DNA from: Bacteroidota bacterium
GTDB taxonomy: Bacteria; Bacteroidota; Bacteroidia; Flavobacteriales_F; PHOS-HE28
Reading direction: 5' to 3'
DNA length: 64,000 nucleotides
Assembly (NCBI GenBank): GCA_018266475.1
Contig: JAFEAI010000244.1
Coordinates: 8,391 to 72,390, forward strand
Shown here piece by piece: positions 2 through 50,197 of the stretch. Below the pieces are notes generated by a model. The model ran no database searches. It was given only the letters and a program-made list of their open reading frames with translations, and was not told the origin of the DNA. Made by a program: the position numbers and the translations under genes. Each line of letters opens with the position of its first letter. Within the stretch, counting starts at the first letter, position 1.

Positions 2-3000
2 ATGCTAACACCACTCGGCAATCGTACAGGAAACATCTTCGACCTCCTTCTCCCGCACCTTCAATCCTCCCCTTCGGCCCCGGCGATCACGGCAGGTGGC
101 ACCACCCTCTCCCGGGCCCAGATTGCCGCACAGGTATCCTGCATGGCCGGGCACCTGCACAAGCACGGTTTGGCACCGGGCCAAACCGTGGCCATCTGTC
201 TGGACCGCTCCCCGGAGCTGATCATCGCCGTGCTGGGCATCGTACAGGCCGGGGCGGCATACGTGCCCATCGACCCCGCATATCCTGTTGAGCGGATCGC
301 CGGCATGCTTGAAGATGCCAAGCCCCCGGTGGTGATCACCAGCAAGGAGCACCGGCACCTCTTCACAGGCACGGCGGCCAAAGTGCTGCTGATCGAGGAT
401 ATCGACCTCCTCACCCTCCCCCCCCTCTCCCAGGGAGAGTGGGCGCCCTGTCCTGCGACACCCGACGACCTGCTGTACGTGCTGTTCACCAGCGGCAGCA
501 CCGGCCGCCCCAAGGGCGTGGCCATGCACCACGCACCGCTCACCAACCTGATCCAATGGCAGCTGCGCACCAGTGTGTGCGGCGAGGGTGATCGCACCCT
601 GCAGTTCGCACCCATCAGTTTTGACGTGAGCTTCCAGGAGATCTTCACCACCTTCGCACAAGGCGGCACGCTGGTGCTGATCACCGATGAGGACCGCCTG
701 AACAGCACCCAGCTCCTGCGGAAGATCATCGCCGAGAAGATCAACCGAATCATCGTTCCCTTCGTGGCGCTGCAGTACTTGGCCGAAGCCGTGGAGCGTA
801 CCGGCGAAGTGCCTTCCACATTGAAAGAGGTTTTCACCAGCGGTGAGCAATTGAAGATCACCCCCGCGATCATCAACCTCTTCAAGCAACTGCCCGGTGT
901 GCGCTTCTGCAACCAGTATGGCCCCACCGAAGGCCACGTGGTGAGCGAGCTTGAGCTAAAAGGCGATCCATCCACCTGGCCCGCGCTGCCCAACATCGGC
1001 AAGGCCATCGACAACGTGAAGCTGCTCGTGCTTGATGAGCAGATGAAGCCGGTGAAGAAGGGTGAGGAAGGCGAGCTCTACCTCGGTGGTGCGTGCGTGG
1101 CCAAAGGCTACATCGGCCGTGATGACCTGACGGCGGAACGCTTCCTGGCGGATCCGTTCGTAAAGCCACCCTTCGGCTCCGCTCAGGGCAGGCTTTACAA
1201 GACCGGCGACCGCGCGGCGGAGCTGCCCAACGGCGAGATCGACTACAAGGGCCGCATCGATGGCCAAGTGAAGGTGCGCGGCTACCGCATTGAGCTGGGC
1301 GAAGTGGAAGTAGCCATGGAGAAACACCGTGCGGTGGAACAAGCCGTGGCCAACGTGCGGGAGGACCGTCCCGGATTGAAACGGCTGATCGGCTACTATG
1401 TGGCGAAGCAGGACGTGAGCGTGAACGAGCTGCGCAAGCACCTCGCTTCCCTCCTACCCGACTACATGGTGCCCTCGGCCTTCGTGGCGGTGAAAGAACT
1501 ACCGCGCACGCCAAGCGGCAAGATCGATCGCAAGGCCCTGCCCGCCCCCGATGTAAAACGCCCTGAATTGGACGTTGCGTTCGCCGCACCGCAAAGCGCC
1601 GTGCAGAAGACGCTCGCCAACGTGTGGGCCGATCTGCTCGGCATCGACCGCGTGGGCATCGACGACAACTTCTTCGACCTCGGCGGCAACTCACTGCTGA
1701 GCATCCAATGCGTGGCGCAGCTGGAAGGCCATGGTCTGAAACTGCCGATCGTGAAACTGTACCAGCATCCGACGGTGCGCGCGTGCGCGGCGTTCTTGGA
1801 AGACGATACGAACGCCGTATCGCCCGCCGAGATGGCGAAAGCCCGCGTAGGGGCGAGACATGTCTCGCCCGAAAAGCGGGACATCGCCATCATCGGCATG
1901 AGCGGCCGCTTCCCCGGTGCTGCCAACGTAGAGGAGCTATGGCTGAACCTGCTGGCCAAGAAGAACAGCATCAGCCGCTGGACGGCCGACGAGATCGACC
2001 CGAGCGTGCCCGCCGAGCTGCGCAACGACCCCGATTACGTGAAGGCGCGCGGCGTGATCGCCGACGCCGACAAGTTCGACGCGGGCTTTTTCGGCGTGAA
2101 CCCCAAGGTGGCCGCACTGATGGATCCACAACAGCGGGTATTCCTCGAAACGGCCTGGGCCGCGCTGGAGGATGCCGCATACGATCCCGCGCAATTCGCT
2201 GGCCTCATTGGCGTGTACGCCGGCATGGGCAACAACACCTATTACACGCGGAACGTCATCGGCCATCCCGAGCTCATCGAGCAAGTGGGCGATTTCCAGG
2301 TGATGACGGCCAACGAAAAGGACTACATCGCCACTCGGCTTGCGTTCGAGTTCGACCTGCGCGGACCCGCGATCAGCATGAACACCGCGTGCAGCACCTC
2401 GCTGGTAGCGATCGCACAAGCCTTCCAGGCCCTGCGCGCCGGCGAATGCGACATGGCGCTGGCCGGCGGCATCGCCATCACCGCGCCGATCAACAGCGGC
2501 ATCGTGTACAACGAGGGCGGCATGTACAGCCCCGACGGCAGCACGCGCACCTTCGATGCCGAGGGAAAGGGCACCAGCTTCAGCGATGGCGTGGGCATCA
2601 TCGTATTGAAGAGGCTGGATGATGCGATCCGCGACAACGACCACATCTACGCCACGATCAAAGGCGCCGCGCTGAACAACGACGGCAGCGACAAGGCCAG
2701 CTTCACCGCGCCCAGCGTGCGCGGGCAGGCCGAAGTGATCGCTATGGCACAGGCCGATGCAGGGGTGTCGCCGGATCAGATCAGCTACGTGGAAGCGCAC
2801 GGCACGGCCACGCCGCTTGGTGATCCCATTGAGGTGGAGGCGCTGACGTTGGCGTTCCGATCAGAAAATCAGAAAATCAGAAAATCAGAAAATGGAAATG
2901 CGCCACATTGCACCATCGGCTCCATCAAGAGCAACATCGGCCACCTTACCGCCGCCGCCGGTGCCGCAGGGGTGATCAAGACCGCACTCGCATTGCAGCA

Positions 3001-6000
3001 GGAGCAGATCCCTGCGAGCATAGGCTATGAAAAGCCGAACCCCGCGATCGACTTCGCGAACTCGCCGTTCCGCGTGGCGCAGGACAACATCGCCTGGCCG
3101 CGCACCGACGCACCGCGCATGGCGGGGGTGAGCAGCTTCGGCGTGGGCGGCACCAACGCGCACGTGATCATGGCGGAGCCGCCGGTGCTGGCAGCATCCG
3201 GCGCATCGCGCAGCAAGCAACTGTTCTTCCTCAGCGCAAAGAGCAAGACCAGCTTGGATGCCATGACGGAGAATTTCCGCCAGTGGCTTGCAGCGCACCC
3301 TGATGCTTCCCTTGCCGACGCCGCATACACGCTGCAAGTGGGCCGCCGTCACTTCAAACACCGCCGGTTGATCGTAGGTGGAAGTCACGGTGAAGTGATC
3401 GACGCGATCGCGAACAAGGACGCGCAGCTGATCGGCACACGCGAACTGCACGAGGCCGCACCGGGCGTGGTGTTCATGTTCCCCGGCCAAGGCTCGCAGT
3501 ATGTACACATGGGCCGCGACCTCTGCGAAAGCGAGCCGGTCTTCAAGCAGCATTTCGATCACTGCTGCGAGCTCTTCGGCAAGGAACTCGGCACCGATCT
3601 GAAGGCCATCATCTTCCCGAAAGCGGGTGAAGAAGAAAAGGCCGCCGGGCAACTGAAGCAGACCATCTACACGCAGGCTTCGCTTTTCACCATGCACTAC
3701 AGCCTGGCGAAACTGTGGATGTACTGGGGCATCACGCCCGATGCGATGATGGGCCACAGCATCGGCGAGTTCGCTGCGGCTTGTCTCGCTGGTGTGTTCT
3801 CATTGGAAGATGCCGTGAAGCTGGTGGCCAACCGCGGCCGCATGATGCAGGAACTGCCCGGCGGCAGCATGCTCAGCGTGCGCGCGACGGAGGAGGATGT
3901 AGCGAAGAAACTTCCCGCTGGCTGCTCGATCGCCGCCAACAATGGCACGCAATTGTGCGTGGCCAGCGGTCCGCATGAGGCGATCGCGAAGCTGCAAGCC
4001 GAACTGGAGAAAGAGGGCATCACGTGCAAGCTGCTCGTGACCAGCCACGCCTTCCACAGCCCGATGATGGACGCCATGGTGGCGCCGTACAAGAAGGTGG
4101 TGGAAAGCGTGAAGCTGAATGCGCCGCGCATTCCGATCATCAGCACGGTGACCGCCCAATGGCTGAAGGACGACGAGGCCGTATCACCCAAATACTGGAG
4201 CGACCACCTGCGTGCCACCGTGCGATTTGCACAAGCGGTGAAGTTCGCGTGGGACGATGCGAACAGGGTAATGCTGGAGGTAGGCCCGCGCACCACGGCC
4301 ACCACGCTGGCCCGCCAGCAAAGCAGCGATGCAAAGAAGCAAGCGGCGGTCCCTTCATTGGGCGATTCCGCAGGCAACGGCAACGAACTGGCGCAACTGC
4401 TGAAAGCCGTGGGCGGCCTGTGGCAGAGCGGCGTGCTGATCGACTGGAAGAAATTCCATGAGCGCGAGGAGCGCAGGCGGATCAGCTTGCCGACCTATGC
4501 TTTTGAACGGGTACGGCATTGGGTGGAACCGGTGGCCTTGCAGGGCGTAAATAGACATGATGGACGCGAATTGCCGTCCATCGCGTCCATTCCAGCGCCG
4601 CACACAGATGCGGGCCTTTCTCCCAAGGACCAACTGATCGCGCAGATCAAACATCTTCTGGAGGAAAGCTCCGGCCTGGAACTCGCCGAAGCCAGCAACG
4701 AGGAGACTTTCCTGGAGATGGGCCTCGACTCGCTCTTCCTCACGCAGGTGGCCACCTCGCTGAGCAAAAAGTTCGGCGTGAAGATCAGCTTTCGGCAGTT
4801 GAACGAGGAGCTGCCGAACCTGGAGAAATTGGCGGAACACTTTTTAGCGAATGGGGTGGGATCAGTTGTCAGTTCACAGTTGTCGGTTGTCAGTGCCCGG
4901 ACAACGGACAACCAACAACCAACAACTGCCTCCGCCCTCGAAGACGCCCCTGAACTGAAGAAAGCCTTCGGTGCCCAGGCGCGCATCAGCAAGGAAAAGG
5001 CGGACGACTTCACGCCGCAACAGCGCGCCTGGTTCACCGACTTCGTGAAGCGCTACACGGCCAAGACCGCCAAGAGCAAGGCTTTCACGCAGGAGAACAG
5101 GAAACCGATGGCCGACCCGCGCGTGGTCACAGGCTTCAAGCCGCAAACCAAGGAACTCACTTACCAGGTGGTGGTGGACCGCAGCAAGGGCTGCCACCTG
5201 TGGGACATCGACGGCAACGAGTATGTGGACATCCTCAGCGGCTTCGGCTCGTCGATGTTCGGCTATATGCCCGACTTCATCAAGGAAGCGTGCCACGACC
5301 AGCTTGAAAAGGGCACGGAGATCGGGCCCATGCACCCGCTTGCAGCGGAAGTATCGAAGTTGCTGTGCGAACTCACCGGAGCCGAGCGCGCGGCCGTTTG
5401 CAACACCGGCAGCGAGGCCGTGCTGGGCGCCATGCGCATGGCCCGCACGGTGACGGGCCGCAGCCTGATCATCTCCTTCAGCGGCAGCTACCACGGCATC
5501 AACGACGAGGTGATCCTCCGCGGCAGCAAAAGCCACAAGAGCTACCCCGGCGCGCCCGGCATCATGCCCGAGGCCGTGCATAACATGCTGGTGCTGGACT
5601 ACGGCACGCCCGAAAGCCTGGAGATCATCAAGCAGCACTGCCACGAAGCCGCCGCCGTGCTGGTGGAACCCGTGCAGAGCCGCCGCATGGAGTTCCGCCC
5701 CGTTGATTTCCTGCGCGAGGTGCGCCGCATCACGAAAGAGCACGGCACCGCGTTGATCTTCGATGAAGTGATCACCGGCTTCCGCATGCACCCGAACGGC
5801 GCACAGGGCCTCTTCGGCATCAAAGCCGACATCGGCACCTACGGCAAGGTGATCGGCGGTGGCATGCCCATCGGCGCCATGATCGGCAGCCGCCCGTGGA
5901 TGGACGCGCTGGACGGCGGCGATTGGCGCTTCGGCGACGACAGCGTGCCCGAAGCCGGAGTGACCTACTTCGCAGGCACGTTCGTGCGCCATCCGTTGAC

Positions 6001-6547
6001 GCTCGCCGCCATGAAGGCCTCACTGCTGTACATGAAACGTGAAGGCCCCGCCTTGCAGGAACGGCTCAACGGGCTCACCCAAGGCATGGTGGAACGCGCC
6101 AATGCGCTCTTCGACCGCTACCAGCTTCCGTACCGCTGGGTACACTTCGGCAGCGCATTCAAGACCAAGTACGACGAAAGCGTCAACTACACCGAGTTCT
6201 TCTTCATGCTGATGCGCCTGCATGGCGTGCATGTGCTGGACTTCCCGCACTTCCTCACCACGGCGCACACGGAAGCGGACGTGGAATTCATCCTCACCGC
6301 CCTGGAGAACACCTGCAAGGAATTGCGCAACAGCGGCTTCATGCCGGAGCGCACCTATCCCCTGGCCGTGGTCAACAGCACCTTGAACGGGCACGCCTTC
6401 AAGCCAAGTGAACTGGTGGTAGAGGCCAGTGAACCGCCCGTGCCCGGCGCCCGCCTGGGCCGTACGCAGGAAGGCGAGCCCGGCTGGTTTGTTCCCGACC
6501 GTGAGCGGCCGGGAAAATTCATTCAACTCGTGGAGCACGGACAATGA
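2..6547 (+). CDS. Hybrid NRPS-PKS megasynthase, 5'-truncated at window start. Domain order: A (partial) - PCP - KS - AT - ACP - class III PLP aminotransferase (AMT). No KR/DH/ER seen.
   Basis: ORF has no start codon at the window edge. A-domain cores LYVLFTSGSTGRPKGV (A3), NQYGPTE (A5), YKTGDRAAELPNGEIDYKGRIDGQVKVRGYRIELGEVE (A7/A8). PCP FFDLGGNSL (~nt 1665-1697). KS DIAIIGMSGRFPG, DTACSTSL (Cys codon ~2391), HGTATPLGDP. AT GHSIGEF (~3751-3771). ACP LGLDSLFLTQV (~4722-4742). C-terminal ~530 aa aminotransferase-III-like (DGNEYVDILSGFGSSMFGY, YGKVIGGGMPIGA with PLP-Lys candidate ~5845). Confidence 0.9.
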   Translation: MLTPLGNRTGNIFDLLLPHLQSSPSAPAITAGGTTLSRAQIAAQVSCMAGHLHKHGLAPGQTVAICLDRSPELIIAVLGIVQAGAAYVPIDPAYPVERIAGMLEDAKPPVVITSKEHRHLFTGTAAKVLLIEDIDLLTLPPLSQGEWAPCPATPDDLLYVLFTSGSTGRPKGVAMHHAPLTNLIQWQLRTSVCGEGDRTLQFAPISFDVSFQEIFTTFAQGGTLVLITDEDRLNSTQLLRKIIAEKINRIIVPFVALQYLAEAVERTGEVPSTLKEVFTSGEQLKITPAIINLFKQLPGVRFCNQYGPTEGHVVSELELKGDPSTWPALPNIGKAIDNVKLLVLDEQMKPVKKGEEGELYLGGACVAKGYIGRDDLTAERFLADPFVKPPFGSAQGRLYKTGDRAAELPNGEIDYKGRIDGQVKVRGYRIELGEVEVAMEKHRAVEQAVANVREDRPGLKRLIGYYVAKQDVSVNELRKHLASLLPDYMVPSAFVAVKELPRTPSGKIDRKALPAPDVKRPELDVAFAAPQSAVQKTLANVWADLLGIDRVGIDDNFFDLGGNSLLSIQCVAQLEGHGLKLPIVKLYQHPTVRACAAFLEDDTNAVSPAEMAKARVGARHVSPEKRDIAIIGMSGRFPGAANVEELWLNLLAKKNSISRWTADEIDPSVPAELRNDPDYVKARGVIADADKFDAGFFGVNPKVAALMDPQQRVFLETAWAALEDAAYDPAQFAGLIGVYAGMGNNTYYTRNVIGHPELIEQVGDFQVMTANEKDYIATRLAFEFDLRGPAISMNTACSTSLVAIAQAFQALRAGECDMALAGGIAITAPINSGIVYNEGGMYSPDGSTRTFDAEGKGTSFSDGVGIIVLKRLDDAIRDNDHIYATIKGAALNNDGSDKASFTAPSVRGQAEVIAMAQADAGVSPDQISYVEAHGTATPLGDPIEVEALTLAFRSENQKIRKSENGNAPHCTIGSIKSNIGHLTAAAGAAGVIKTALALQQEQIPASIGYEKPNPAIDFANSPFRVAQDNIAWPRTDAPRMAGVSSFGVGGTNAHVIMAEPPVLAASGASRSKQLFFLSAKSKTSLDAMTENFRQWLAAHPDASLADAAYTLQVGRRHFKHRRLIVGGSHGEVIDAIANKDAQLIGTRELHEAAPGVVFMFPGQGSQYVHMGRDLCESEPVFKQHFDHCCELFGKELGTDLKAIIFPKAGEEEKAAGQLKQTIYTQASLFTMHYSLAKLWMYWGITPDAMMGHSIGEFAAACLAGVFSLEDAVKLVANRGRMMQELPGGSMLSVRATEEDVAKKLPAGCSIAANNGTQLCVASGPHEAIAKLQAELEKEGITCKLLVTSHAFHSPMMDAMVAPYKKVVESVKLNAPRIPIISTVTAQWLKDDEAVSPKYWSDHLRATVRFAQAVKFAWDDANRVMLEVGPRTTATTLARQQSSDAKKQAAVPSLGDSAGNGNELAQLLKAVGGLWQSGVLIDWKKFHEREERRRISLPTYAFERVRHWVEPVALQGVNRHDGRELPSIASIPAPHTDAGLSPKDQLIAQIKHLLEESSGLELAEASNEETFLEMGLDSLFLTQVATSLSKKFGVKISFRQLNEELPNLEKLAEHFLANGVGSVVSSQLSVVSARTTDNQQPTTASALEDAPELKKAFGAQARISKEKADDFTPQQRAWFTDFVKRYTAKTAKSKAFTQENRKPMADPRVVTGFKPQTKELTYQVVVDRSKGCHLWDIDGNEYVDILSGFGSSMFGYMPDFIKEACHDQLEKGTEIGPMHPLAAEVSKLLCELTGAERAAVCNTGSEAVLGAMRMARTVTGRSLIISFSGSYHGINDEVILRGSKSHKSYPGAPGIMPEAVHNMLVLDYGTPESLEIIKQHCHEAAAVLVEPVQSRRMEFRPVDFLREVRRITKEHGTALIFDEVITGFRMHPNGAQGLFGIKADIGTYGKVIGGGMPIGAMIGSRPWMDALDGGDWRFGDDSVPEAGVTYFAGTFVRHPLTLAAMKASLLYMKREGPALQERLNGLTQGMVERANALFDRYQLPYRWVHFGSAFKTKYDESVNYTEFFFMLMRLHGVHVLDFPHFLTTAHTEADVEFILTALENTCKELRNSGFMPERTYPLAVVNSTLNGHAFKPSELVVEASEPPVPGARLGRTQEGEPGWFVPDRERPGKFIQLVEHGQ
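4862..4928. repeat. In-frame palindromic heptamer-repeat block (AGTTGTC/GGTTGTC units then reverse complement GACAACGGACAACCAACAACCAACAACTG) inside the NRPS-PKS ACP-AMT linker; encodes SQLSVVSARTTDNQQPTT.
   Basis: Direct reading: cagttgtcagttcacagttgtcggttgtcagtgcccggacaacggacaaccaacaaccaacaactg. Same heptamer family as the arrays at 32796-32892 and 35461-35480. Confidence 0.7.
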
Positions 6548-6584
6548 CCCCGGGCTTCCGTTTTACTCCCACCGCAGCGTGACC

Positions 6585-9500
6585 ATGGAAAAGTTCATCC
6601 CGGAAACCACCGCCGTGCCTGTTGCCCATGATCCGTTCAGCGGCCCCGCCATCCAGCGGACCATCCCCACCACGGAATCGCAGATGGAGGTGTTTGCCGC
6701 CTCGGAGATGGGCAACGAGGCCAATTGCGCATACGTGGAAAGCATTTCGCTGGTGCTCACGGGCAAGCTGGTACAACCGGCCCTGGAAACGGCGCTTCAG
6801 GACCTGACCGCGCGCCACGAAAGCCTGCGCAGCACCATCAGTCCCAACGGCATGCGCATGGTGGTGCTCGAACGGATGACCCTCCCCACCCCGTTCGAAG
6901 ACCTCTCCGGCATTGATGAACCGGCCCGGCGCTCGCGCATGGAGCAGCTTGCCGAAGAGGACATGCGCCGGCCTTTCGACCTGGTGAGCGGCCCATTGTT
7001 CAGGGTATCCCTCACCAAGATCGCACCCGACCGGCACGTGCTGCGCCTGAGCGGCCACCACGCCGTGCTGGACGGGTGGAGCCTCGGCATCCTGATGGCC
7101 GAGATCAGCGCCCTCTACAATGCGCGCTTGGCCGGCACCGCACCGGCCCTTCCTGCGGCGGATCCGTTCAGCCGCTACGTGCGGGAAACCATTGCGTTTT
7201 CCAAGAGCAGTGCGCAGGCCGCCGTAGAGCAATACTGGACCGGACTGTACAGGGATTCCGTGCCGCGCCTGGACCTGCCCACGGACCGGCCGCGGCCGGT
7301 GCCCAAAACCTTCAACGGCCACCGCCTGGACCTTGCGATGGACCGGGAACTTGTGCGCGGCCTGAGATCCGTGGCCACGCGCAACGGCGCAAGCTTCGTC
7401 ACCACCCTGCTTTGCGCATTCGAACTGCTGCTGCACAAGCTCACCGGCCAGCACGAAATTGTGACCGGGCTGCCTGCGGCAGGCCAAAGCGACCTGGGCA
7501 TGAAGCACCTGGTGGGGCACTGTGTAAACCTGCTCGCCCTGCGCAGCCGGATCGATGACGAAGAATCCTTCGACCAATACCTGAAGCAGCGCCGCACCGA
7601 GGTGCTCGATGCCTTCGACCACCAGAAGTACACCTTCGGGACGCTGCTGCAAAAACTGAAGGTGCCGCGGGAGCCGGGCCGCATTCCACTGGTGCCCGCC
7701 GTGTTCAACATCGACATGAACATGGACGACGGGGTGTCCTTCACCGGGCTGGCACACCGCTTCGTGAGCAACCCCAGGCACTACGAAAACTTCGAGCTTT
7801 TCCTGAACGCCACCGGGCAGGGCGACGACCTGGTGCTGGAATGGAGCTATAACACGGACCTCTTCGACAAAGCGACCATCCGCAGTTGGATGGACCAGCT
7901 ATCCACCCTGGTGCGGCGGATCGGCGGCAACAGCGCCCTGCCGATCGGCGCCCTGTTGGGCGAGGAAGAACCTTCCGCCCATAAAATGCCTTTGCCCGAA
8001 TGGCACGGCACCGCCACGGACATCCCGCGCGGAACCAGCATCGGCGCATTGTTCGACGAAGTGGCCGCCGCACACCTCGCAAGCCCCGCGCTAGTAGCAC
8101 CGGACGGCGAATGGAGCTACGCGAAATTGCACGACCGTACACTGTCCATGGCATCGGCACTGCTGGCGGCAGGCGTAAAACCCGGCGACCCGGTGGGCCT
8201 GTGCACCGACCGTTGCGCGGACATGGTTGCGGCCATGCTTGCCATCCTGCGCTGCGGTGCCGCCTTTGTGCCCTTCGACCCCGCCTACCCCGCCGACCGC
8301 CTGGAGTACATGTTGCAGGACACGGGCATCCGCGTGCTGATCACGCAACGGCACCTTTCGGCGGCCTTGCCCAGGCATGATGCACGCACCTTGTTCGTGG
8401 AAGACCTGCACGGTGCCGAAGCCCCGCAGCCCGCCGCCGGCGGCCCTGATTCACCGGCGTACATCATGTACACCTCCGGTTCCACGGGCAAGCCCAAGGG
8501 CGTGGTGGTGCCGCACCGCGCCGTGATCCGCCTGGTGCGCAACCAGAACTTCCTGCCCTTCGGACCCGACCTCACCTTTCTGCAACTTTCCAATATCTCC
8601 TTTGACGCCTCCACACTGGAGCTATGGGGAGCGCTCCTGAACGGGGCACGGCTTGTGCTGCAACCCCAGCAGAAGCCAACCCTGCAGGAGGTCATCGACA
8701 CCATCCACAAGCACCGTGTGACCACGGTATGGTTCACCGCGGGCCTGTTCAACCTGATGGTGGACGAGCACCTGGAACAATTGCACGGCCTCAGGCACAT
8801 CCTGGCCGGCGGCGATGCGCTCAGCGTGCCCCACGTAAAGCGTGCCCTGCGCACCTTGGGGCCAGGCATACTGATCAACGGGTACGGCCCCACAGAGAAC
8901 ACCACCTTCACCTGCTGCCATGCCATAAATGATTTGCAGGCCCTGCAAACCCGCGTGCCCATCGGCAAACCCATCGCGAACACCACGGCCTACATCCTGG
9001 GCCCCGACATGCAGCCGGTGGCCATAGGGGAGAAAGGCGAACTGTACACCGGTGGCGAAGGCGTTGCCCTGGGGTACTGGCAGCAGCCGGAACTGACCGC
9101 CGCGCAATTCATTCCGGACCCGTTCAGCAAGCATCCGAACGCCAAGCTCTACCGCACGGGCGACCAGGTGCGGTGGCTGCCCGACGGCACCATCGACTTC
9201 CTGGGCCGCGGCGACGGCCAGGTGAAGGTGCGCGGATTCCGCGTGGAGCTCGGCGAGATCGAGAACGCCATCAGCGCGGTGGCTGGCGTGAAGGACCGCG
9301 TGGTGGTTGCGCGCAACGACGGGCCCGGGGAAAAACAACTGGCGGCCTACTTGGTGCCGGCACAGCATGCGGGCGACGGTGACGCCCAGGAAGCACTGAT
9401 CAAGCAAGTGCGCGACCACCTGCGCCAAACCTTGCCGGACCACATGGTGCCTTCGGCCTTCGTGATCCTTGCCGAGCTGCCGCTTACCGCAAACGGAAAG

Positions 9501-10535
9501 GTGGACAAACGGGCATTGCCGATTCCTGAACACCGGTCGCAGACCTTGGCGGCGGGCCATGTGGCACCGCGGAACGACAAGGAGGAACGCATCGCGGAGA
9601 TCTGGGGCCAGCTGCTGAACGCACCCGGAATCGGCGTACACGACAACTTCTTCGACCTTGGCGGCCATTCCCTGATCGGCATCCAGCTGCTGGCGCGCGT
9701 GGAGGAGCAGTTCGGCAAACGCCTGCCACTGAACTCCCTGTTCCAGGCGCCCACCGTGGCGGCATTCGCCAAATTGGTACACAGCAAGAACGCCGCCAGC
9801 GGCCTGAAAAACCTGGCCGCCCTGCAACCTGAAGGCACGCGCACGGCCTTCTTCTGCGTGCATGGCGATGAACTGAACCACCACATCATGCGCCACCTCG
9901 GCAAGGACCAGCCCTTCTTCGCCTTCTTCCACCAAGGAGAGAACGGGCAGCGGTTTGAGCACTTCACGGTGGAGGACATTGCCGCGCACTACATGCACGA
10001 ACTGCTTACGGTGCAGCCCGAAGGGCCTTTCCTGCTCGGCGGATATTCCTTCGGCGGGATCGTGGCGTACGAAATGGCCCAGCAGCTCACCAAGGCCGGG
10101 CATGAAGTGCCCTTCCTTGCCTTGTTCGACATGCCCGCGCCGGAATTGTTCGTGCAGAGCATGCGCAGCGAGCGCAAACTGCACGAACCCGTACGGGACG
10201 TGGTGGTCCGCTGGCTCGCAAAACGCGCGTTCGCCAAGGGGCGCATCCGCTCGCCGCGCCTGCAGCACTACTACATCATCGACAACTACAACAAGGCCAT
10301 CCAGGCGTACCGGCCAAAGCCGTACGGCGGGCCTGTCACGGTGTTCAAGGCCTCGGGAACCACAGGCCCGGACGACCTCGGCTGGGCCAAGCTGGTAACA
10401 GGCCCGTTGGACGCCCGCGTATTGCCGGGCGACCACTACAGCCTGATCAGGGAACCCGGGGTTGCGCGCTTAGTGAAGGAACTGGGCGCAGCCATCGACC
10501 GCTCCACCCTGCGGCATGCGGTGGAGGCCGTATAA
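6585..10535 (+). CDS. NRPS termination module: C - A - PCP - TE.
   Basis: ATG at 6585 (MEKFIPETT...), 38 nt after the upstream stop. The ORF-track start at 6429 lies inside the previous gene. C-domain HHAVLDGWS (~7058). A-domain [74 protein letters not shown] (~9647). TE GYSFGG (~10040). Confidence 0.9.
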   Translation: [1316 protein letters not shown]

Positions 10536-10537
10536 CC

Positions 10538-11287
10538 ATGCCCAGCCCCCGGACGCTCACCATACACTGCGCAGCTGCCGTACACGCCCGCACTGAACAC
10601 CCGCCACCGGGCGCGCCGGACAGCGCAGAAGCGTGGGTGTACTTCGGCAGCATCAGCTCCCTGGCGGCAAGAAGCGCGCACTTCCTTTCCCTGCTCGATG
10701 CCGAGGAGCTGGCACGCGCGGACCGCTTCCGGTTTGCCCAGGACCGTGAGCGCTTCATTGCGGGGCACGGGCTGCTGCGGGAGCTTCTGGGCCAACAACT
10801 TCACCGGCACCCCAAGGACCTGGTGCTGCTGCGCGGGGAATTCGGAAAACCCTTTCTGGAAGGAGGCCCGCTGCACTTCAACCTCAGCGACACCAAGGAT
10901 GCCGTCCTGGTGGCCTTCTCGCGGCAACCGATCGGTGCGGACATTGAAACGATCAACCGCCACACGGACCATGCCGCCGTGGCCAACCATTACTTCACGC
11001 CGGCGGAAGTGCGCAGCATCGCCACCGCCGTGGATGCCAAACGCAGGTTCCTGGAACTGTGGACGCGCAAGGAAGCCGTGCTGAAGGCCTGCGGCGTGGG
11101 CCTGATGGACGACCTGCAGAGCTTGGAGGTGAACGGGCCAACGAACTTGATGACGATCACCCACCCCGAATTCGTGCGGATGGCGGCGCCTGCATACTAC
11201 GTGCGGACCCTGCTGGCCGGCACGGACCACTTCATCAGCGTGGCCACGGCACAGGCGGTCCACTCGGTGCGGCTTTTCACCGCATAG
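10538..11287 (+). CDS. Sfp-type 4'-phosphopantetheinyl transferase.
   Basis: ATG 3 nt after the NRPS stop. Motifs GKPFL, FNLSDTKDAVLVAFSRQPIGADIE, WTRKEAVLKACGVG (W/FxxKEA..K PPTase signature). Position immediately downstream of the TE-ending NRPS. Confidence 0.8.
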   Translation: MPSPRTLTIHCAAAVHARTEHPPPGAPDSAEAWVYFGSISSLAARSAHFLSLLDAEELARADRFRFAQDRERFIAGHGLLRELLGQQLHRHPKDLVLLRGEFGKPFLEGGPLHFNLSDTKDAVLVAFSRQPIGADIETINRHTDHAAVANHYFTPAEVRSIATAVDAKRRFLELWTRKEAVLKACGVGLMDDLQSLEVNGPTNLMTITHPEFVRMAAPAYYVRTLLAGTDHFISVATAQAVHSVRLFTA

Positions 11288-14166: not shown

Positions 14167-14633
14167 ACAGCACAGCCAGCGCCAAGGTTGCCGTCTTCCC
14201 CGGTTCATTCGACCCGGTGACCGCAGGCCACGTGAGCATTGTGGAACGCGCCCTGCCCCTGTTCCACCGCGTGGTGGTGGCCGTGGGCGTGAACAGCAGC
14301 AAGCGCTACATGTTCCCGCTGGAGCAGCGCCTGGAGTGGCTGCGCAGCACCTTCCGGGATGAACCCAAGGTGGAGGTGATCGCCTTTGAGGGCCTCACCG
14401 CGGACCTCTGCCTGAGGCTCTCGGCACACTACATCGTGCGCGGGCTGCGCAACAGCACCGACCACGGCTTCGAACGCAGCATCGCCCTGATGAACCATGC
14501 CTTGCGCGGCGTGGAGACCATCTTCCTCCCCGCCCTGCCCGAACATGCACACATCAGCAGCACCATCGTGCGCGAACTGATGGCCAATAACGCCGACGTT
14601 TCCGCGTTCGTGCCTGCGGCGGTGCGCCCATGA
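14163..14633 (+). CDS. coaD: Pantetheine-phosphate adenylyltransferase.
   Basis: KVAVFPGSFDPVTAGHVSIVERA (PPAT T/HxGH motif). ATGA overlap with the rsmD stop. Confidence 0.9.
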   Translation: MNSTASAKVAVFPGSFDPVTAGHVSIVERALPLFHRVVVAVGVNSSKRYMFPLEQRLEWLRSTFRDEPKVEVIAFEGLTADLCLRLSAHYIVRGLRNSTDHGFERSIALMNHALRGVETIFLPALPEHAHISSTIVRELMANNADVSAFVPAAVRP

Positions 14634-16150
14634 TCCGAGCTATCCTTTCCTGCCTTGCCGCACTCTCCGGCATGCTGCTGGGCGCGGCCCCCGTGCAATT
14701 GCACATCAAGGCGACAGCCTACCCCCGGCAGCAGGCCACCCTGTACCGGTACATGGACCTGTTCACCCAGCGGACGGAAGCCATTGCCGAAGGATGGACC
14801 GACGCGAACGGCGCGGTGCAGCTCACCGCCGAGGTGGACGGCACCCAAAAAGCCCGCCTCCGCATCGGGAAGGTGGCGGCCGACCTGTGGTTGCGCGAAG
14901 GAGCCTACCACATTGAAATGCCTGCGGCCCCAACGGACCAGCCGCCCGGCATCAACGGCACAGCCCGCGTGCAGCCCACCTTCACCGACCTTGATCCGCT
15001 GGACATAAACGCCCTGGTCGCCGACCTGAACACCCGGCTGGACGCCTTTCTGGCCGCCGGCCTTGCCACGGACCGCAATACCGGCATGGACGCCCTGGCC
15101 AAGGCCCGCAAGGACGGCACCGCGCTAAAGCCGGACACTTCAAAAACAGCAGACCGGCCCCTGCTCTCCCCCACCTGGAACGAAGCCCGCACCGACACCT
15201 TCGCCCGGAAGCTGCGCAAGTTCTATGCAGCCGTGCCCGATCCCTGGTTCCAGGCCGACCTGGAATACGGTATCGCCGGGCTGTACTTAGGCCCCCAGAC
15301 CAGGGACCGCGACCTGTACGACCATTTCCTCAAGGGCAAGCCCGTGCTGTACGGCGTACCTGAATACGTCCGCTTCTTCACCTCCCTGTTCAAGGACCCG
15401 TTGCTGGGCGGCCCCTTCCGCACCCGTCCGGACGACGTGCTGCGCTTCATCCGGGAAGGCAGCACCGACAGCCTGAAAGCACTTTTGGCCGCGAACGACC
15501 TGCTGAAGGAAGACCGGCTGAACGAGCTCGCCCTGCTCTACGACCTGTACACCAACCAGGGCAATGCCCTTTTCGACCGCGACGGGATCATCCGGGTGAT
15601 CGGCGATGTGCAGGACCGCTCGCGCTACCCCGAACACCGGTTGATCGCCGCCGACATGCTGTGGGACCTCACCGCCATGATGGGCGGCACACTGCTGCCC
15701 CCAATGGAACTCACCCGGCCCGACGGAAATGCCATGCACCTGGACAGCCTGCTGCAAGGCCCTTCCTGCCTGCTGGTGGTAAAACCCGGAAACCCCTACA
15801 CGGACCAGGAACTCGCCGCCCTGGCCCAGCTCCGCAAGGACTACGGCGGCCATGTGCGCTTTCTGTGCATCGCCCTGGACCGCAGCCCGCAGGAGCTGGG
15901 GGCATGGTTGAAGGCCAACCCCCAATATGGCGGCAGCTGGGCCGTGCCCGCCAACCCGCGCGCACTGCTGGATGATTGGCGCATAAGCAGCGTACCCGCC
16001 GCCTTCCTGCTGGATGGTCGGATCCTGGCCCGCGCGCCCGCGCCCCTGCCCGGCAACGGCCTGGCCGCCGAACTGCACAAGCTGAAAGTGGCCGGCCAGC
16101 GCGCGGACCAGCTCAAGCCGGATCGCGGACAGCCTCCTCCCAGGCGGTGA
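14630..16150 (+). CDS. Hypothetical exported protein with C-terminal thioredoxin/TlpA-like region lacking a CxxC motif.
   Basis: N-terminal signal-like segment MIRAILSCLAALSGMLLGAAPVQL. C-terminal region (LLVVKPGNPYTDQELAALAQLRKDYGGHVRFLCIALDRS...VPAAFLLDGRIL) resembles redoxin/TlpA domains, but no CxxC was found by eye. ATGA overlap with coaD. Confidence 0.5.
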   Translation: MIRAILSCLAALSGMLLGAAPVQLHIKATAYPRQQATLYRYMDLFTQRTEAIAEGWTDANGAVQLTAEVDGTQKARLRIGKVAADLWLREGAYHIEMPAAPTDQPPGINGTARVQPTFTDLDPLDINALVADLNTRLDAFLAAGLATDRNTGMDALAKARKDGTALKPDTSKTADRPLLSPTWNEARTDTFARKLRKFYAAVPDPWFQADLEYGIAGLYLGPQTRDRDLYDHFLKGKPVLYGVPEYVRFFTSLFKDPLLGGPFRTRPDDVLRFIREGSTDSLKALLAANDLLKEDRLNELALLYDLYTNQGNALFDRDGIIRVIGDVQDRSRYPEHRLIAADMLWDLTAMMGGTLLPPMELTRPDGNAMHLDSLLQGPSCLLVVKPGNPYTDQELAALAQLRKDYGGHVRFLCIALDRSPQELGAWLKANPQYGGSWAVPANPRALLDDWRISSVPAAFLLDGRILARAPAPLPGNGLAAELHKLKVAGQRADQLKPDRGQPPPRR

Positions 16151-17952: not shown

Positions 17953-19767
17953 ATGGCATCCGGAAGAAAAGCGGAAAACGAGGCCAAGCCGGCCAAGCTC
18001 TCCAAGGCCGCGCTGCGCAAGTTTTTCCGCGTATTCCGCTACATGCGGCAGCAGCGCGGCCTTTTTGCCCTGGGCATGGGCTGCCTGCTGATGACCAGCC
18101 TGCTCAGCGCCGCCTTTCCCTGGCTCATCGGCAAGCTGATCGATGCCAAGGCCACCACCACCTTTTGGCAGGCGCCCTTGTACGACATGGGCAACGTGCA
18201 TTCCATCCTGAAGCTGCTGCTGGTGGTGTTCGCCGCGCAGGCCTTCTTCGGGTTCTGGCGCATCTGGAGCTTCGGCTCGGTGACCGAGAACGCGCTGACG
18301 CATTTGCGCCGCGACACCTACGCGCACGTGCTGCGGTTGCCGATGAGCTTCTTCGCACAGCGCCGCGTGGGCGAGCTCAACAGCCGCATCAGCGCGGACG
18401 TGGCCCTGCTGCAGGACACCTTCACCACCGTGCTGGCCGAGTTCCTGCGGCAGTTCGTGGTGATCACGGTGTGCATTGCCGCACTGGCCTACCTGAGCCC
18501 GCAACTGATGCTCACCATGCTGGCCACACTGCCCGTGGTGATGCTGGTGGCCGTGTTCTTCGGCCGCTTCATCCGCCGCCTCAGCAAGCAGGTGCAGGAC
18601 CGCATCGCCGAAAGCAACGTGATCGTGGACGAAACCCTGCAGGGCATCCAGAGCGTGAAGGCCTTCAGCAACGAAGGCTACGAGACGCACCGCTACGGCA
18701 ACGCCGTGCTCGCCGCGCGCAAGCTGGCACTCACCGCACTGCGCTGGCGCGGCGGCTTCGTCAGCTTCATCATCTTCGGCATGTTCAGCGTGATCGTGTT
18801 CGTGGTGTACCGCGCGGCACTGCTGAAGGATGCCGGGCTGATGACCATGGGCGGCATCACCTCCTTCGTGGCCTTCAGCATCATGATCGGCGCCAGCATC
18901 GCCGGCATTCCCGAGCAGGTGACCTCCCTGCTGAAAGCCGTGGGCGCCACCGAACGCCTGATGGACCTGCACGACGAGGCCGTGGAACCCATCCACCTCG
19001 GCCCCAAGCTGGAGCCGCTGGACCTGCGCGGCAGGATCGAATTCCGCGACGTGGAGTTCCACTATGCCTCGCGCCCCGACCTCACCGTGCTGCACCACGT
19101 GGCATTCACTGCGGAACCGGGCCAGCGCATCGCCCTGGTGGGGCCCAGCGGCGCGGGCAAGAGCACCATTGCCTCATTGGTGCTGCGCTTTTACGACCCC
19201 GTGGGCGGCACCGTGCTGATCGATGGCAAGGATGCCCGCGACTACCCGCTCACGGCCTTGCGCGACCGCATGGCCATCGTGCCGCAGGAGGTGCTGCTGT
19301 TCGGCGGCTCCATCCAGGAGAACATCGCCTACGGCAAGCCCGATGCCACCCTGCAACAGATCGAGGAGGCCGCCCGCAAGGCCAATGCGCATGAGTTCAT
19401 CGCCCGCTTCCCGCAAGGGTACGGCACCGTGGTGGGCGAGCGCGGCGTGCAGCTCAGCGGCGGCCAGCGCCAACGCATCGCCATTGCACGGGCCGTGCTG
19501 AAAAACCCCGCCATCCTGATCCTGGACGAAGCCACCAGCGCGCTGGACAGCGAAAGCGAGCGCCTGGTGCAGGAAGCACTGGACCAGCTGATGAAGGGCC
19601 GCACCAGCATTGTGATCGCACACCGCCTGAGCACCATCCGCAACGCCGACCGCATTCTGGTGCTGGACAAGGGCACCGTGGTGGAAAGCGGCACCCACGA
19701 CGAGCTGATCGCGGACGCCCATGGGCTGTACCACAGCCTGAGCAGCCTGCAGTTGGAGCGCGCGTGA
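17953..19767 (+). CDS. ABC transporter, fused permease/ATP-binding protein (MsbA/lipid-exporter type).
   Basis: Six-TM N-terminal half. Walker A GPSGAGKSTI, signature LSGGQRQRIAIARAVL, Walker B ILILDEATSALD. Confidence 0.85.
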   Translation: MASGRKAENEAKPAKLSKAALRKFFRVFRYMRQQRGLFALGMGCLLMTSLLSAAFPWLIGKLIDAKATTTFWQAPLYDMGNVHSILKLLLVVFAAQAFFGFWRIWSFGSVTENALTHLRRDTYAHVLRLPMSFFAQRRVGELNSRISADVALLQDTFTTVLAEFLRQFVVITVCIAALAYLSPQLMLTMLATLPVVMLVAVFFGRFIRRLSKQVQDRIAESNVIVDETLQGIQSVKAFSNEGYETHRYGNAVLAARKLALTALRWRGGFVSFIIFGMFSVIVFVVYRAALLKDAGLMTMGGITSFVAFSIMIGASIAGIPEQVTSLLKAVGATERLMDLHDEAVEPIHLGPKLEPLDLRGRIEFRDVEFHYASRPDLTVLHHVAFTAEPGQRIALVGPSGAGKSTIASLVLRFYDPVGGTVLIDGKDARDYPLTALRDRMAIVPQEVLLFGGSIQENIAYGKPDATLQQIEEAARKANAHEFIARFPQGYGTVVGERGVQLSGGQRQRIAIARAVLKNPAILILDEATSALDSESERLVQEALDQLMKGRTSIVIAHRLSTIRNADRILVLDKGTVVESGTHDELIADAHGLYHSLSSLQLERA

Positions 19768-28767: not shown

Positions 28768-29208
28768 ATGCACATGAAAATCCGGTTCCTCCCCATGCTC
28801 GCAGCGCTGCTGCTGGGCTTAGGCACTTCCGCCCAGACCAAAGTATCCATCACCCAGGTGCAGGCCGCGGACGGGCAGCACACGCTGCAAGGCAATGATG
28901 CCGTGATCCAGCTGGCCGGTGCCGAAGGCGCGGGCAATACGGCCATCCTGTCCTCGGGCGACGTTTCGGCCACCGTGCATGCCAAGGTGTCCTCCCACAA
29001 CGTGCGCCGCAGCAGCCTGAAGGATTCCGCCGTGAACCTGATCCTGGAGATCAACCTGAAGGCCGGCAAGGACAAGGACAACAAGCGCGTGGAGAAGATC
29101 TTCTACATGGACCAGGCGCGCACCGCCACGGTAAGCCAGAAGTTCAATTTCAAGCAGGGCATCACCATGCGGCCCATCACGCTCACGTTCAACATCGCCA
29201 TTGAATGA
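28768..29208 (+). CDS. Hypothetical small exported protein, translationally coupled to the downstream acyl-CoA ligase.
   Basis: Signal peptide MHMKIRFLPMLAALLLGLGTSAQT; ATGA overlap with the next gene. Confidence 0.45.
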   Translation: MHMKIRFLPMLAALLLGLGTSAQTKVSITQVQAADGQHTLQGNDAVIQLAGAEGAGNTAILSSGDVSATVHAKVSSHNVRRSSLKDSAVNLILEINLKAGKDKDNKRVEKIFYMDQARTATVSQKFNFKQGITMRPITLTFNIAIE

Positions 29209-30971
29209 AGCCCCGCCCTTCGCGCCTGTTCGACCTGCTGGACCTGCAGCTCGCCGAGTTCCCGCAGGAAGTGTGCATCGCCACCAAGGAGCAGGACACC
29301 TGGCGCAACCATTCCACGGCGGACGTGGTGGAGGCCGCCGAACGGCTCGCCATGGGGCTGATGGCACTTGGCGTGAAGCCGGGCGACCGCGTGGCCCTGG
29401 CCAGCGGCAACCGCAGCGAGTGGTGCATCGTGGACCAGGCGGTCCTGCGCATGGGCGCCATCAGCGTGCCCATCTACCCCACCAGCAGCGTGGAGGACTA
29501 CGCCTACATCCTCAACCATGCCGGGGCGCGCGTATTCTTCGCCGGCAACCAGGAGCTTTACGGCAAGGCCGAGGCCGCCGCCGCCAGCGTGCCCGCCCTC
29601 AAGCACATCTACACCTTCGACCGGCTGGACGGGCTGCCCCACTGGACCATGCTCCTTTCACGGGATGAAAGCCTGCGCCCCCTGCTGGAGCAGCACAAGG
29701 CCGCCGTGCGCCAGGGCGACCTGGCCACCATCATCTACACCAGCGGCACCACCGGCAAGCCCAAGGGCGTAATGCTCAGCCATGCCAACATCCTCAGCAA
29801 CGTGGAGGCCAGCGCGGAGCGCCTGCCCGTGGAGCGCGGCTCGCGCTGCATCAGCTTCCTGCCGCTGTGCCACATCTACGAGCGCATGCTGATGTACCTC
29901 TACCAGCGCACCGGCATGAACATCCACTTCGTGGAAACCCTGGACGACCTGGGCGCCAAGATCAAGGAAGTGCGGCCGCACGTGTTCACCGCCGTGCCCC
30001 GCCTGCTGGAGAAGATCTATGAATCCATCCTCACCAAGGGCGAGGCGCTCACCGGCATCAAACGCCAGCTCTTCCTGCTCTCCCTGCAGGTGGGCGAGCA
30101 GTACGACGTGCGCGGAAAAGGCCCCTGGTACGCCTTGAAGCTCGCCTTGATGCGCAAGCTGGTCTTCAGCAAATGGCGCGAGGCCTTGGGCAACGAGGTG
30201 CGCTGCGTGGCCAGCGGCAGCGCCGCGCTCAACCAGCGCCTGTGCCGCATCTACAACGCCGCCGGCGTGCCCGTGATGGAAGGCTACGGCCTTACGGAGA
30301 CCAGCCCCGTGGTGAGCGTGAACGACGCCCGCAACAACGGCCTCCGCTTCGGCAGCGTGGGAAAGCCCATCAGCAACGTGCAGGTGAAGATCGCCGACGA
30401 CGGCGAGATCCTCCTGAAGGGTCCCAACGTGATGATGGGCTACTACAACGACCCGGAGCAGACCGCGCAGGTGCTGGACCCCGACGGATGGCTGCACTCC
30501 GGCGACATCGGCAAGGTGGATGCCGACGGCTTCCTCTTCATCACCGACCGCAAAAAGGAGATCTTCAAGACCAGCGGGGGCAAATACATCGCCCCGCAAG
30601 CCGTGGAAAACCTGCTGCGCTCCTCCCGCTTCATTGAGCAGGCCATGGTGATCGGCGAAAACCACAAGTTCCCCGCTGCGCTCATCGTGCCCAACTTCAC
30701 CTTCCTGAAGGATTATTGCGCCTTGAAGGGGATCCCCTTCAACAACCAAGGCCAAGTGGTGAAGGAAACCCAAGTGGTTGCGCGCATCCAGCAGGAGGTG
30801 GACCGCATCAACCTGGCGCTCGGCCATTGGGAGCAGGTGAAAAAGGTCGCGCTGCTGCCCACGGACTGGAGCATTGACGGCGGCGAATTCACCCCCTCGC
30901 TGAAGCTGCGCCGCAAGCCCATCCTGGCCAAGTACGCGGCCTATGTGGACGCGATCTACAACGAAGCCTGA
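29205..30971 (+). CDS. Long-chain fatty acid--CoA ligase (AMP-dependent synthetase, FadD-like).
   Basis: IIYTSGTTGKPKGVMLSH, GYGLTETSP, C-terminal KTSGGKYIAPQ motif. Confidence 0.8.
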   Translation: MKPRPSRLFDLLDLQLAEFPQEVCIATKEQDTWRNHSTADVVEAAERLAMGLMALGVKPGDRVALASGNRSEWCIVDQAVLRMGAISVPIYPTSSVEDYAYILNHAGARVFFAGNQELYGKAEAAAASVPALKHIYTFDRLDGLPHWTMLLSRDESLRPLLEQHKAAVRQGDLATIIYTSGTTGKPKGVMLSHANILSNVEASAERLPVERGSRCISFLPLCHIYERMLMYLYQRTGMNIHFVETLDDLGAKIKEVRPHVFTAVPRLLEKIYESILTKGEALTGIKRQLFLLSLQVGEQYDVRGKGPWYALKLALMRKLVFSKWREALGNEVRCVASGSAALNQRLCRIYNAAGVPVMEGYGLTETSPVVSVNDARNNGLRFGSVGKPISNVQVKIADDGEILLKGPNVMMGYYNDPEQTAQVLDPDGWLHSGDIGKVDADGFLFITDRKKEIFKTSGGKYIAPQAVENLLRSSRFIEQAMVIGENHKFPAALIVPNFTFLKDYCALKGIPFNNQGQVVKETQVVARIQQEVDRINLALGHWEQVKKVALLPTDWSIDGGEFTPSLKLRRKPILAKYAAYVDAIYNEA

Positions 30972-35496: not shown

Positions 35497-36603
35497 CTAC
35501 TTCAACTTGTTCGCCTCCTCGGCATCAAATGCCTCCCCCGGCTCGTCCAGCGGGCGGGCGCTGGTATAGGTGCGCCACCGGGCCAGCACCGCCTGCATGT
35601 CCGCAGGCAGCGGGCTTTCAAACCGCATGCGCTTCCCGGTCGCAGGGTGGTCGATGGCCAGCATGGCCGCATGCAGTGCCTGGCGCGGCAGCAGCCGGAA
35701 GCAATTCTCCACGAACTGCTTGTATTTGGAGAATACCGTGCCCTTCAGCACACGGTCGCCGCCATACGCCGCATCATTGAACAGCGGATGGCCGATGTGC
35801 CTCATGTGCGCACGGATCTGGTGCGTGCGGCCCGTTTCCAGCTTGCACTCCACCAAGGTGACATAGGTGAAGCGCTCCAGCACCTTCCAATGCGTGATGG
35901 CGGTTTTGCCCTGTTCCGGGTCGGCGGGCACCGACATCACGGTACGGTCCTTGGGGGAGCGGTCCAGGTTGCCTTCGATGGTGCCCTCATCGGCATCGAA
36001 ATCGCCCCACACCAGCGCCTGGTAGCGGCGGTCGTTGGTGCGCTCAAAGAACTGGCGTGCCAGGTGGGCCATGGCATCCTCGGTCTTGCCCACCACCATT
36101 ACGCCGCTGGTGTCCTTGTCCAGCCGGTGTACCAGGCCGGGCCTTGGCACGGGCTGGTTGGGCGCCGAGGGCAGCTTGCCGAAATGGAACAGCAAGGCGT
36201 TCACCAGCGTGCCCGTCCAATTGCCGTGGCCCGGGTGTACCACCAGGCCCGCCTGCTTGTTGAGCACCAGGATCTGGTCATCCTCGTACAGCACCTCCAG
36301 GGGAATGTCCTCCGGCAGCAGCTCCACCTCCCGCACGGGATGCGGCAGCACCAGGGTCACCACATCCTTGGGCTTCACCTTGTAGCTGGGCTTTTCGGCC
36401 CTGCCGTTCACCAGTACGTTGCCGTTGCGGGCCGCAGCGGCGATGCGTGAACGCGAGGCGCCGCCGATGTGGTCGAAGAGAAATTTATCCAGCCGCACCA
36501 AGCCTTGCCCGGGATCGGCCACCACGCGGTGATGCTCATAGAGCTCCTGCTCGTCGCCCGCATCCTCCGCGGCCCGGCCGGATGTTCCGTTGTCCTTCAC
36601 CAT
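35497..36603 (-). CDS. rluD: 23S rRNA pseudouridine synthase, RluA/RluD family.
   Basis: S4 domain (RLDKFLFDHIGGASRSRIAAAARNGNVLVNG); catalytic HRLDKDTSGVMVVGK. Confidence 0.85.
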   Translation of the reverse strand: MVKDNGTSGRAAEDAGDEQELYEHHRVVADPGQGLVRLDKFLFDHIGGASRSRIAAAARNGNVLVNGRAEKPSYKVKPKDVVTLVLPHPVREVELLPEDIPLEVLYEDDQILVLNKQAGLVVHPGHGNWTGTLVNALLFHFGKLPSAPNQPVPRPGLVHRLDKDTSGVMVVGKTEDAMAHLARQFFERTNDRRYQALVWGDFDADEGTIEGNLDRSPKDRTVMSVPADPEQGKTAITHWKVLERFTYVTLVECKLETGRTHQIRAHMRHIGHPLFNDAAYGGDRVLKGTVFSKYKQFVENCFRLLPRQALHAAMLAIDHPATGKRMRFESPLPADMQAVLARWRTYTSARPLDEPGEAFDAEEANKLK

Positions 36604-48889: not shown

Positions 48890-48939
48890 CCGGTTCCAGG
48901 CCTTTGGAGCCTATCGCGCCAAATGGGCGCGGCATCCAC

Positions 48940-50176: not shown

Positions 50177-50197
50177 CCAGTTGCCGCATTCCGCTCC

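Follow-up and report, generated by a model that had tools for sequence, protein, structure and literature searches.

The window analysed here is a 64,000-nucleotide stretch of contig JAFEAI010000244.1 (assembly GCA_018266475.1) from a high-GC Bacteroidota bacterium, a type of host that a preliminary description of the DNA had already named. Three genes at its start (nucleotides 2 to 11287), all on the forward strand, encode a hybrid nonribosomal peptide synthetase (NRPS)-polyketide synthase (PKS), a single NRPS module and a 4'-phosphopantetheinyl transferase (PPTase). We consider it likely that they form a complete, self-contained operon for a two-module hybrid assembly line with its own PPTase, whose product would be built from a proline-type residue, malonate and valine. 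The line is composed of adenylation (A), peptidyl carrier protein (PCP), ketosynthase (KS), acyltransferase (AT), acyl carrier protein (ACP), aminotransferase (AMT), condensation (C) and thioesterase (TE) domains, arranged as follows:

Nucleotides 2 to 6547, forward strand: gene 1, hybrid NRPS-PKS of 2181 amino acids, A-PCP-KS-AT-ACP-AMT plus a C-terminal tail, with its ATG at nucleotide 2 (Pfam matches, continuous open reading frame).
62 to 1522, forward strand: A1 adenylation domain, residues 21-507, code DVQIFSQVVK (proline-like).
1610 to 1798, forward strand: PCP1, residues 537-599, Ser in GGNSL (residues 561-565).
1877 to 3028, forward strand: KS, residues 626-1009, Cys/His/His triad in TACSTS, EAHGTAT and NIGHL.
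3470 to 4363, forward strand: AT, residues 1157-1454, motifs GHSIG and HAFH, Acyl_transf_1 at 1.5e-53.
4634 to 4846, forward strand: ACP, about residues 1545-1615 (limits approximate), Ser1577 in GLDSL (nucleotides 4721-4735), placed by a second PP-binding stretch and the motif.
4997 to 6349, forward strand: AMT domain of the MycA type, residues 1666-2116, pyridoxal phosphate (PLP) lysine Lys1949 in TYGKVIGGG (nucleotides 5837-5863).
6434 to 6529, forward strand: C-terminal motif, residues 2145-2176, PPVPGARLGR...GWFVPD...PGKFIQL.
6585 to 10535, forward strand: gene 2, NRPS module C-A-PCP-TE of 1316 amino acids (Pfam), with the same length in the gene call on a Logan contig.
6654 to 7949, forward strand: C domain, HHAVLDG at nucleotides 7056-7076, Condensation at 1.6e-83.
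8052 to 9500, forward strand: A2 adenylation domain, code DALWLGGTFK (valine), AMP-binding at 1e-87.
9585 to 9779, forward strand: PCP2, GGHSL, PP-binding.
9912 to 10472, forward strand: thioesterase, GYSFGG, Pfam Thioesterase at 3.6e-24.
10538 to 11287, forward strand: gene 3, Sfp-type PPTase of 249 amino acids (Pfam ACPS and AASDHPPT_N).

This domain order, as given in the preliminary description, is borne out by Pfam with E-values of 1e-9 to 1e-88 over the three genes, concordant NCBIfam matches and intact catalytic motifs, while the start of gene 2 had to be corrected to nucleotide 6585. Gaps of 37 nucleotides from the stop of gene 1 to gene 2 and of 2 nucleotides from the stop of gene 2 to gene 3 separate the coding regions, and scans revealed neither promoter-like nor same-strand terminator-like sites inside the operon. 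Within gene 1, AMP-binding (residues 21-370, 2e-71) and AMP-binding_C (residues 434-507) cover A1, PP-binding matches two stretches, the best being residues 537-599, and the KS is matched by the N-terminal (8e-68) and C-terminal (2e-38) ketoacyl-synt families together with KS-AT linker families. The HAFH motif of the AT is of the malonyl type and is kept in all of the 119 closest database orthologues of gene 1 (77-98% identity); KS, AT and ACP active-site motifs are kept in 113-119 of them. On these motifs and codes, the AT reads as malonyl-selective and A2 as valine-selective. Neither a ketoreductase (KR), a dehydratase nor an enoylreductase was matched in gene 1 by Pfam at E<=0.01, in agreement with the proposed lack of a KR, and only about 90 residues lie between the end of the AT and the ACP, so that the β-keto group should be available for transamination. 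The product of gene 3 matches ACPS (PF01648, 5e-17) and AASDHPPT_N (PF22624, 8.5e-9), and its 249 residues agree with the size of about 230-250 residues typical of the two-lobed Sfp-type enzymes. It is assigned to the Sfp-type PPTases at the family level only, because its HetI-like NCBIfam score of 104 bits falls below the equivalog cutoff.

The class-III aminotransferase fold that had been proposed for residues ~1650-2180 is clearly present. Aminotran_3 (PF00202) matches residues 1721-2078 at 1.2e-47, HemL-like NCBIfam models match at 1e-70, and the solved AMT structures of MycA (PDB IDs 6KFM, 6KFR and 6KFU) align over the whole domain with 50-55% identity and an E-value of 1e-122. The PLP lysine of MycA aligns with Lys1949, which settles the check on the catalytic lysine, and the lysine motif is kept in 119 of 119 orthologues. 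The next matches in the PDB are free-standing glutamate-1-semialdehyde aminomutases at ~1e-49. By sequence and alignment, the AMT domain of gene 1 genuinely belongs with the in-line AMT domains of the MycA type.

The AMT domain is followed by a conserved tail. A search with AMT domain and tail against 1.84 billion cluster representatives returned 2936 matches below 1e-30, and the counts of AMT representatives given here refer to the best 150 of these. Of the 150, 62 have the tail consensus PPVPGARLGR..G.P.WF.PD...PGK(F/Y) behind the AMT domain, and its distance from the C-terminus is about 30 residues in 58 of these 62 carriers. As proximity to the protein end marks systems in which AMT and C domains are split between proteins, the tail of gene 1 is probably a docking peptide, so far undescribed, for the gene 2 protein. 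With C domains that follow AMT domains in cis, the C domain of gene 2 shares 37-45% identity, compared with 25-32% for the remaining C domains of those proteins, and it groups by sequence with the AMT-following clade. The clade membership of this C domain, which begins gene 2, and the conserved tail support a direct transfer of the chain from gene 1 to gene 2, as had been suggested.

Only one base of the window precedes the ATG of gene 1, and whether the gene is truncated is therefore not decidable from the window alone. The preliminary description had taken the genes for the tail of a longer line cut by the window, with additional modules upstream probably feeding a chain to A-PCP-KS. The upstream region was read from a 98%-identical Logan contig (L087), which extends 2.7 kb further upstream, and from relatives. 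L087 carries an in-frame TAA 60 nucleotides before the ATG, the stretch between the two being free of other start codons, and its nearest upstream gene lies 357 nucleotides away on the opposite strand (L087 2-2317, reverse strand). The 119 orthologues are 1977-2203 residues long (median 2159), with about 108 beginning within 10 residues of Met1 of the window protein, and in about 30 related loci from Flavobacteriales metagenome-assembled genomes (MAGs) the stop-to-stop frame opens 15-100 nucleotides ahead of this common N-terminus. Met48, the start chosen by the Logan gene callers, was rejected: it would cut a core motif of A1, and nearly all orthologues begin near residue 1. The upstream neighbor in 26 related loci is a divergently transcribed, unrelated protein of 1500-2000 residues; in one of them (L038, 3935-9433, reverse strand) it is large, repetitive and secreted, combining thrombospondin type-3 repeats with a C-terminal sorting domain of the type IX secretion system. 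No NRPS or PKS domains were found within 10 kb upstream in relatives, except in two loci (L020, 3-3500; L047, 31-4000) that carry an extra C-A-T-TE gene (T, thiolation domain) about 6 kb upstream of gene 1. Taken together, the upstream stop, the orthologue starts, the divergent neighbor and the lack of upstream NRPS or PKS genes indicate a line of two modules. The two exceptional relatives and the position of the window edge are what a longer line has in its favor. However, A1 is not preceded by a C domain, and the same three-gene cassette, PPTase included, stands alone amid unrelated neighbors in Mucilaginibacter gilvus, a cultured species, and in a MAG from the Bacteroidia. We thus regard a longer line as very improbable and the ATG at nucleotide 2 as a true start.

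Housekeeping genes lie downstream of the PPTase gene, among them a convergent, opposite-strand gene for a PIF1-like helicase and those for DUF3822, RsmD and CoaD, and the G+C content is constant across the operon boundary. Combined with the upstream evidence, this limits the cluster to three genes. No conserved tailoring, transport or regulatory genes were found beside the cassette in Flavobacteriales, Mucilaginibacter or the Bacteroidia MAG. An ABC exporter in the window (nucleotides 17953-19767) was not assigned to the cluster because it is 6.7 kb away with housekeeping genes between. A stand-alone AMP-binding enzyme of 588 residues (nucleotides 29205-30971, forward strand; AMP-binding_C_3) was likewise set aside as acyl-CoA-ligase-like, lying 18 kb from the operon amid housekeeping genes.

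The nature of the starter unit depends on A1. The A1 domain scores 399 bits against TIGR01733 (amino acid adenylation; cutoff 317), contains Asp235 and Lys517 within a full NRPS-type code and has NRPS A domains as its best PDB matches (LgrA and TycB, including the proline-activating TycB1). On this basis it is classified as an amino-acid-type A domain and not as a fatty-acyl ligase, and the earlier suggestion of amino-acid priming holds. The KS-AT-ACP-AMT-C logic and the homology to the MycA AMT domain are shared with iturin- and mycosubtilin-type lipopeptide synthetases, in which a fatty-acyl-AMP ligase would supply the starter of a β-amino fatty acyl peptide. A starter of this kind is scarcely credible here given the properties of A1 and the single further amino acid added, compared with seven in iturins. 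An amino-acid-type A1 and one downstream NRPS module place the operon outside the iturin-family lipopeptide synthetases.

Specificity codes were extracted by alignment to GrsA-PheA, the reference used giving back the published code DAWTIAAICK; for A2, positions 330 and 331 were assigned manually at the NGYGPTENTTF motif. Stachelhaus reference codes are well established, the canonical proline code being DVQLIAHVVK. The A1 code DVQIFSQVVK is identical to it at 6 of 10 positions, with four conservative changes, and our best call for the A1 substrate, judged by this code, is proline or a close imino-acid analogue. The D-V-Q (235, 236, 239) and V-V-K (330, 331, 517) positions constitute a proline signature. 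More distant loci of the same architecture, from the Bacteroidia MAG and four Bacteriovorax MAGs, carry the proline codes DVQFIAHVTK, DVQFTAHVVK and DVQFLAHVVK; canonical proline codes are thus found in the nearest relatives of this architecture outside the lineage. The same assembly logic could instead operate on another residue loaded by A1, such as pipecolate, a substituted proline, azetidine-2-carboxylate or something unrelated. The A1 code, with its four non-proline positions, is fixed within the lineage (DVQIFSQVVK in 109 of the 119 orthologues, DVQFFSQVVK in 9) and the Mucilaginibacter homologue has the unrelated code DAVNIAMVAK. Further, the arrangement A-T-KS-AT-T-AMT is found in about 76 of the best 150 AMT representatives, with amino-acid-type A codes in all but two. 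About 35 of the 76 are of the proline type (DVQ..(H/Q)V.K) and other members carry valine, threonine or serine codes. Against this stand the proline signature, the codes of the nearest relatives and the lack, in or beside the operon, of a gene for the synthesis of a non-standard imino acid, which make a different A1 substrate unlikely, though less so than the other alternatives considered here.

Based on these assignments, a six-step pathway can be proposed. The PPTase would first prime the three carrier domains (step 1), and A1 would adenylate a proline-type imino acid and load it onto PCP1 (step 2), the substrate being read from the code. From domain order and intact motifs, the KS is expected to join prolyl-S-PCP with malonyl-S-ACP loaded by the AT, yielding 3-oxo-3-(pyrrolidin-2-yl)propanoyl-S-ACP (step 3). 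MycA is well known to convert a β-keto into a β-amino group on the carrier, and by analogy the AMT domain, a close homologue by sequence, would do the same here (step 4), generating a vicinal diamine made up of the ring nitrogen and a primary amine on the adjacent carbon. The β,γ-diamino logic of the preliminary description would thereby hold as predicted chemistry. The gene 1 protein would then dock onto the gene 2 protein via its C-terminal peptide, the C domain coupling the chain to the valine that A2 supplies (step 5). The TE would finally release 3-amino-3-(pyrrolidin-2-yl)propanoyl-valine (C12H23N3O3, ~257 Da), by hydrolysis or in the form of a lactam such as a seven-membered 1,4-diazepane-2,5-dione closed via the β-amine (step 6).

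The same enzymes might also give a bicyclic product if the pyrrolidine nitrogen attacked the ACP thioester before or after transamination. This would result in pyrrolizidine-1,3-dione or 1-aminopyrrolizidin-3-one, with module 2 acylating the free amine with valine or taking the uncyclised fraction. Since A1 comes first, with neither a C domain nor any other module ahead of it, the starter is without N-acyl protection, and on chemical reasoning a five-membered lactam forms easily from a γ-amino thioester. However, the clade of the C domain is the one taking chains straight from AMT modules in cis, the putative docking tail is kept in split proteins and a C-A-T-TE partner is present in every complete relative, so that we find a bicyclic outcome improbable and favor normal transfer of the chain to module 2.

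Several points weigh against the interpretation of the locus as a complete operon with this product. The region upstream of gene 1 lies outside the window and is known through the 98%-identical contig and through relatives. The A1 code departs from canonical proline at four of ten positions (278 I, 299 F, 301 S and 322 Q) and could therefore specify an analogue or another substrate. As no product is known for any member of the family, steps 2 to 6 are predictions, and both the Stachelhaus codes and the MycA mechanism are borrowed from established knowledge. The free secondary amine of the starter sits beside a β-keto or β-amino thioester, and a pyrrolizidinone lactam formed before transfer could change the product. 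Lastly, the chemistry of the TE is not predictable from sequence.

With these points in mind, we tentatively propose, as plausible but short of probable, that the operon and its relatives make undescribed small vicinal-diamine pseudo-dipeptides consisting of a proline-derived β,γ-diamino acid and a variable hydrophobic residue, possibly cyclised to diazepanediones or aminopyrrolizidinones. The operon is held at a single chromosomal position across an uncultured Flavobacteriales lineage. If the proposal is correct, retention at one fixed position in an abundant lineage seen mostly in metagenomes would point to a product of central ecological importance, which might for instance inhibit peptidases in the manner of bestatin, bind metals or act in signaling.

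Variation among relatives is concentrated in gene 2 and the PPTase gene, which diverge much faster than gene 1. Gene 1 is 80-92% identical across Flavobacteriales relatives, and domain identities (loci L007-L039) are 70-86% for A1, 40-73% for A2, 42-68% for the TE and 48-61% for the PPTase. The A2 codes differ between relatives and include valine-like, glycine-like (DILALGMIWK) and several other codes. This points to a conserved half that would form the diamino acid and a variable second residue, that is, to natural swapping of the second residue, and the resulting variation would represent a ready-made set of analogues. In four loci (L010, L014, L016 and L039), a second thioesterase-like gene is located after gene 2, sometimes in the position of the PPTase gene.

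The amino-acid-primed architecture is widespread and has been noticed before. Most of the A-T-KS-AT-T-AMT representatives terminate directly behind the tail, and some continue into a fused C-A-T-TE. The amino-acid-primed form is thus no curiosity: it makes up about half of the best 150 AMT representatives, nearly half of those being of the proline type. All orthologues carry generic annotation, and ten distant cluster representatives that were checked are almost all metagenomic. No characterized product of the amino-acid-primed PKS-AMT family was found in the literature searched or in database names. Protein C6XWU5 of Pedobacter heparinus was listed in 2013 as A-CP-KS-AT-CP-PLP (CP, carrier protein) with the predicted product Nrp-Mal-Gly (Milano et al. 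2013, PMC3870968 Table 2). The rarity of NRPS-PKS-AMT hybrids in Bacteroidota asserted in the preliminary description was therefore overstated, because the architecture is common in metagenomes and a Bacteroidetes example had already been tabulated. In Nostoc loci (L062-L084, several from lichen MAGs), a valine-coded A-PCP protein (DAFWLGGTFK) is followed by a separate KS-AT-ACP-AMT protein whose AMT domain is 57-58% identical to that of the window; this amino-acid-primed system apparently lies within larger clusters.

To our knowledge, in-line AMT domains have been studied almost entirely in fatty-acyl- or polyketide-primed lines such as those for iturins, microcystins and puwainaphycins. The operon would be a minimal, self-sufficient case of an amino-acid starter that is extended once and then aminated to a predicted vicinal diamine. 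At 11.3 kb and three genes, the cassette is a good candidate for heterologous expression because it is small and encodes its own PPTase. The conserved C-terminal tail may further serve as a portable AMT-to-C docking element in assembly-line engineering.

Elsewhere in the window, nucleotides 42772-56986 comprise a locus of the polysaccharide or O-antigen type with a G+C content of 0.55-0.60 against ~0.63, encoding a DegT-family aminotransferase, a GNAT protein, a GT2 and several GT4/GT1 glycosyltransferases and an FkbM-type methyltransferase. Open reading frames of 293-758 residues without a Pfam match are located at 14630-16150 (forward strand), 36597-38873 (reverse), 41130-42011 (reverse) and 50198-51289 (forward). 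Neither tRNA genes nor Rfam families at the gathering threshold were found in the 64 kb.

Among known systems, MycA and ItuA of mycosubtilin and iturin biosynthesis (AL-ACP-KS-AT-ACP-AMT-C-A-PCP; AL, acyl ligase) resemble the operon in that a C domain comes after a KR-free KS-AT-ACP-AMT stretch. The AMT domains of MycA and of the window are close homologues and, by analogy, the same conversion of a β-keto into a β-amino group is expected. The MycA and ItuA starter is provided by a fatty-acyl ligase, whereas the window has a proline-type A domain that would lead to a vicinal diamine instead of a β-amino fatty acid. Further, unlike in MycA and ItuA, the AMT and C domains of the window reside on separate proteins with a conserved tail, and a single NRPS module with a TE would yield a pseudo-dipeptide, compared with the seven modules that build an iturin-family lipoheptapeptide. 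That a MycA-type β-amination module occurs with amino-acid priming is not surprising in principle.

McyE and NdaF of microcystin and nodularin biosynthesis (KS-AT-CM-ACP-AMT-C-A-PCP-C; CM, C-methyltransferase) also carry an in-line class-III AMT domain after a PKS module and before a C domain. McyE occupies a middle position in a long polyketide line, contains a C-methyltransferase and receives a phenylpropanoid-primed chain, all of which distinguish it from the window system. The protein C6XWU5 of Pedobacter heparinus shares domain layout, phylum and the two-module type of cluster with the window; the window protein is ~41-62% identical by domain to the Sphingobacteriia version, from which it differs in both A1 and A2 codes. 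The Mucilaginibacter gilvus locus (L046) contains the same cassette with a glycine-type A2.

Proline-primed, KR-containing NRPS-PKS modules are known to generate γ-amino-β-hydroxy units, namely detoxinine in detoxins and rimosamides and dolaproine in dolastatin 10. As proposed for the window, these modules extend a prolyl thioester by one malonyl-type unit. In contrast to them, where a KR reduces the β-keto group and the proline nitrogen is acylated upstream, the window system would transaminate the β-keto group of a chain in which proline is the free N-terminal starter.

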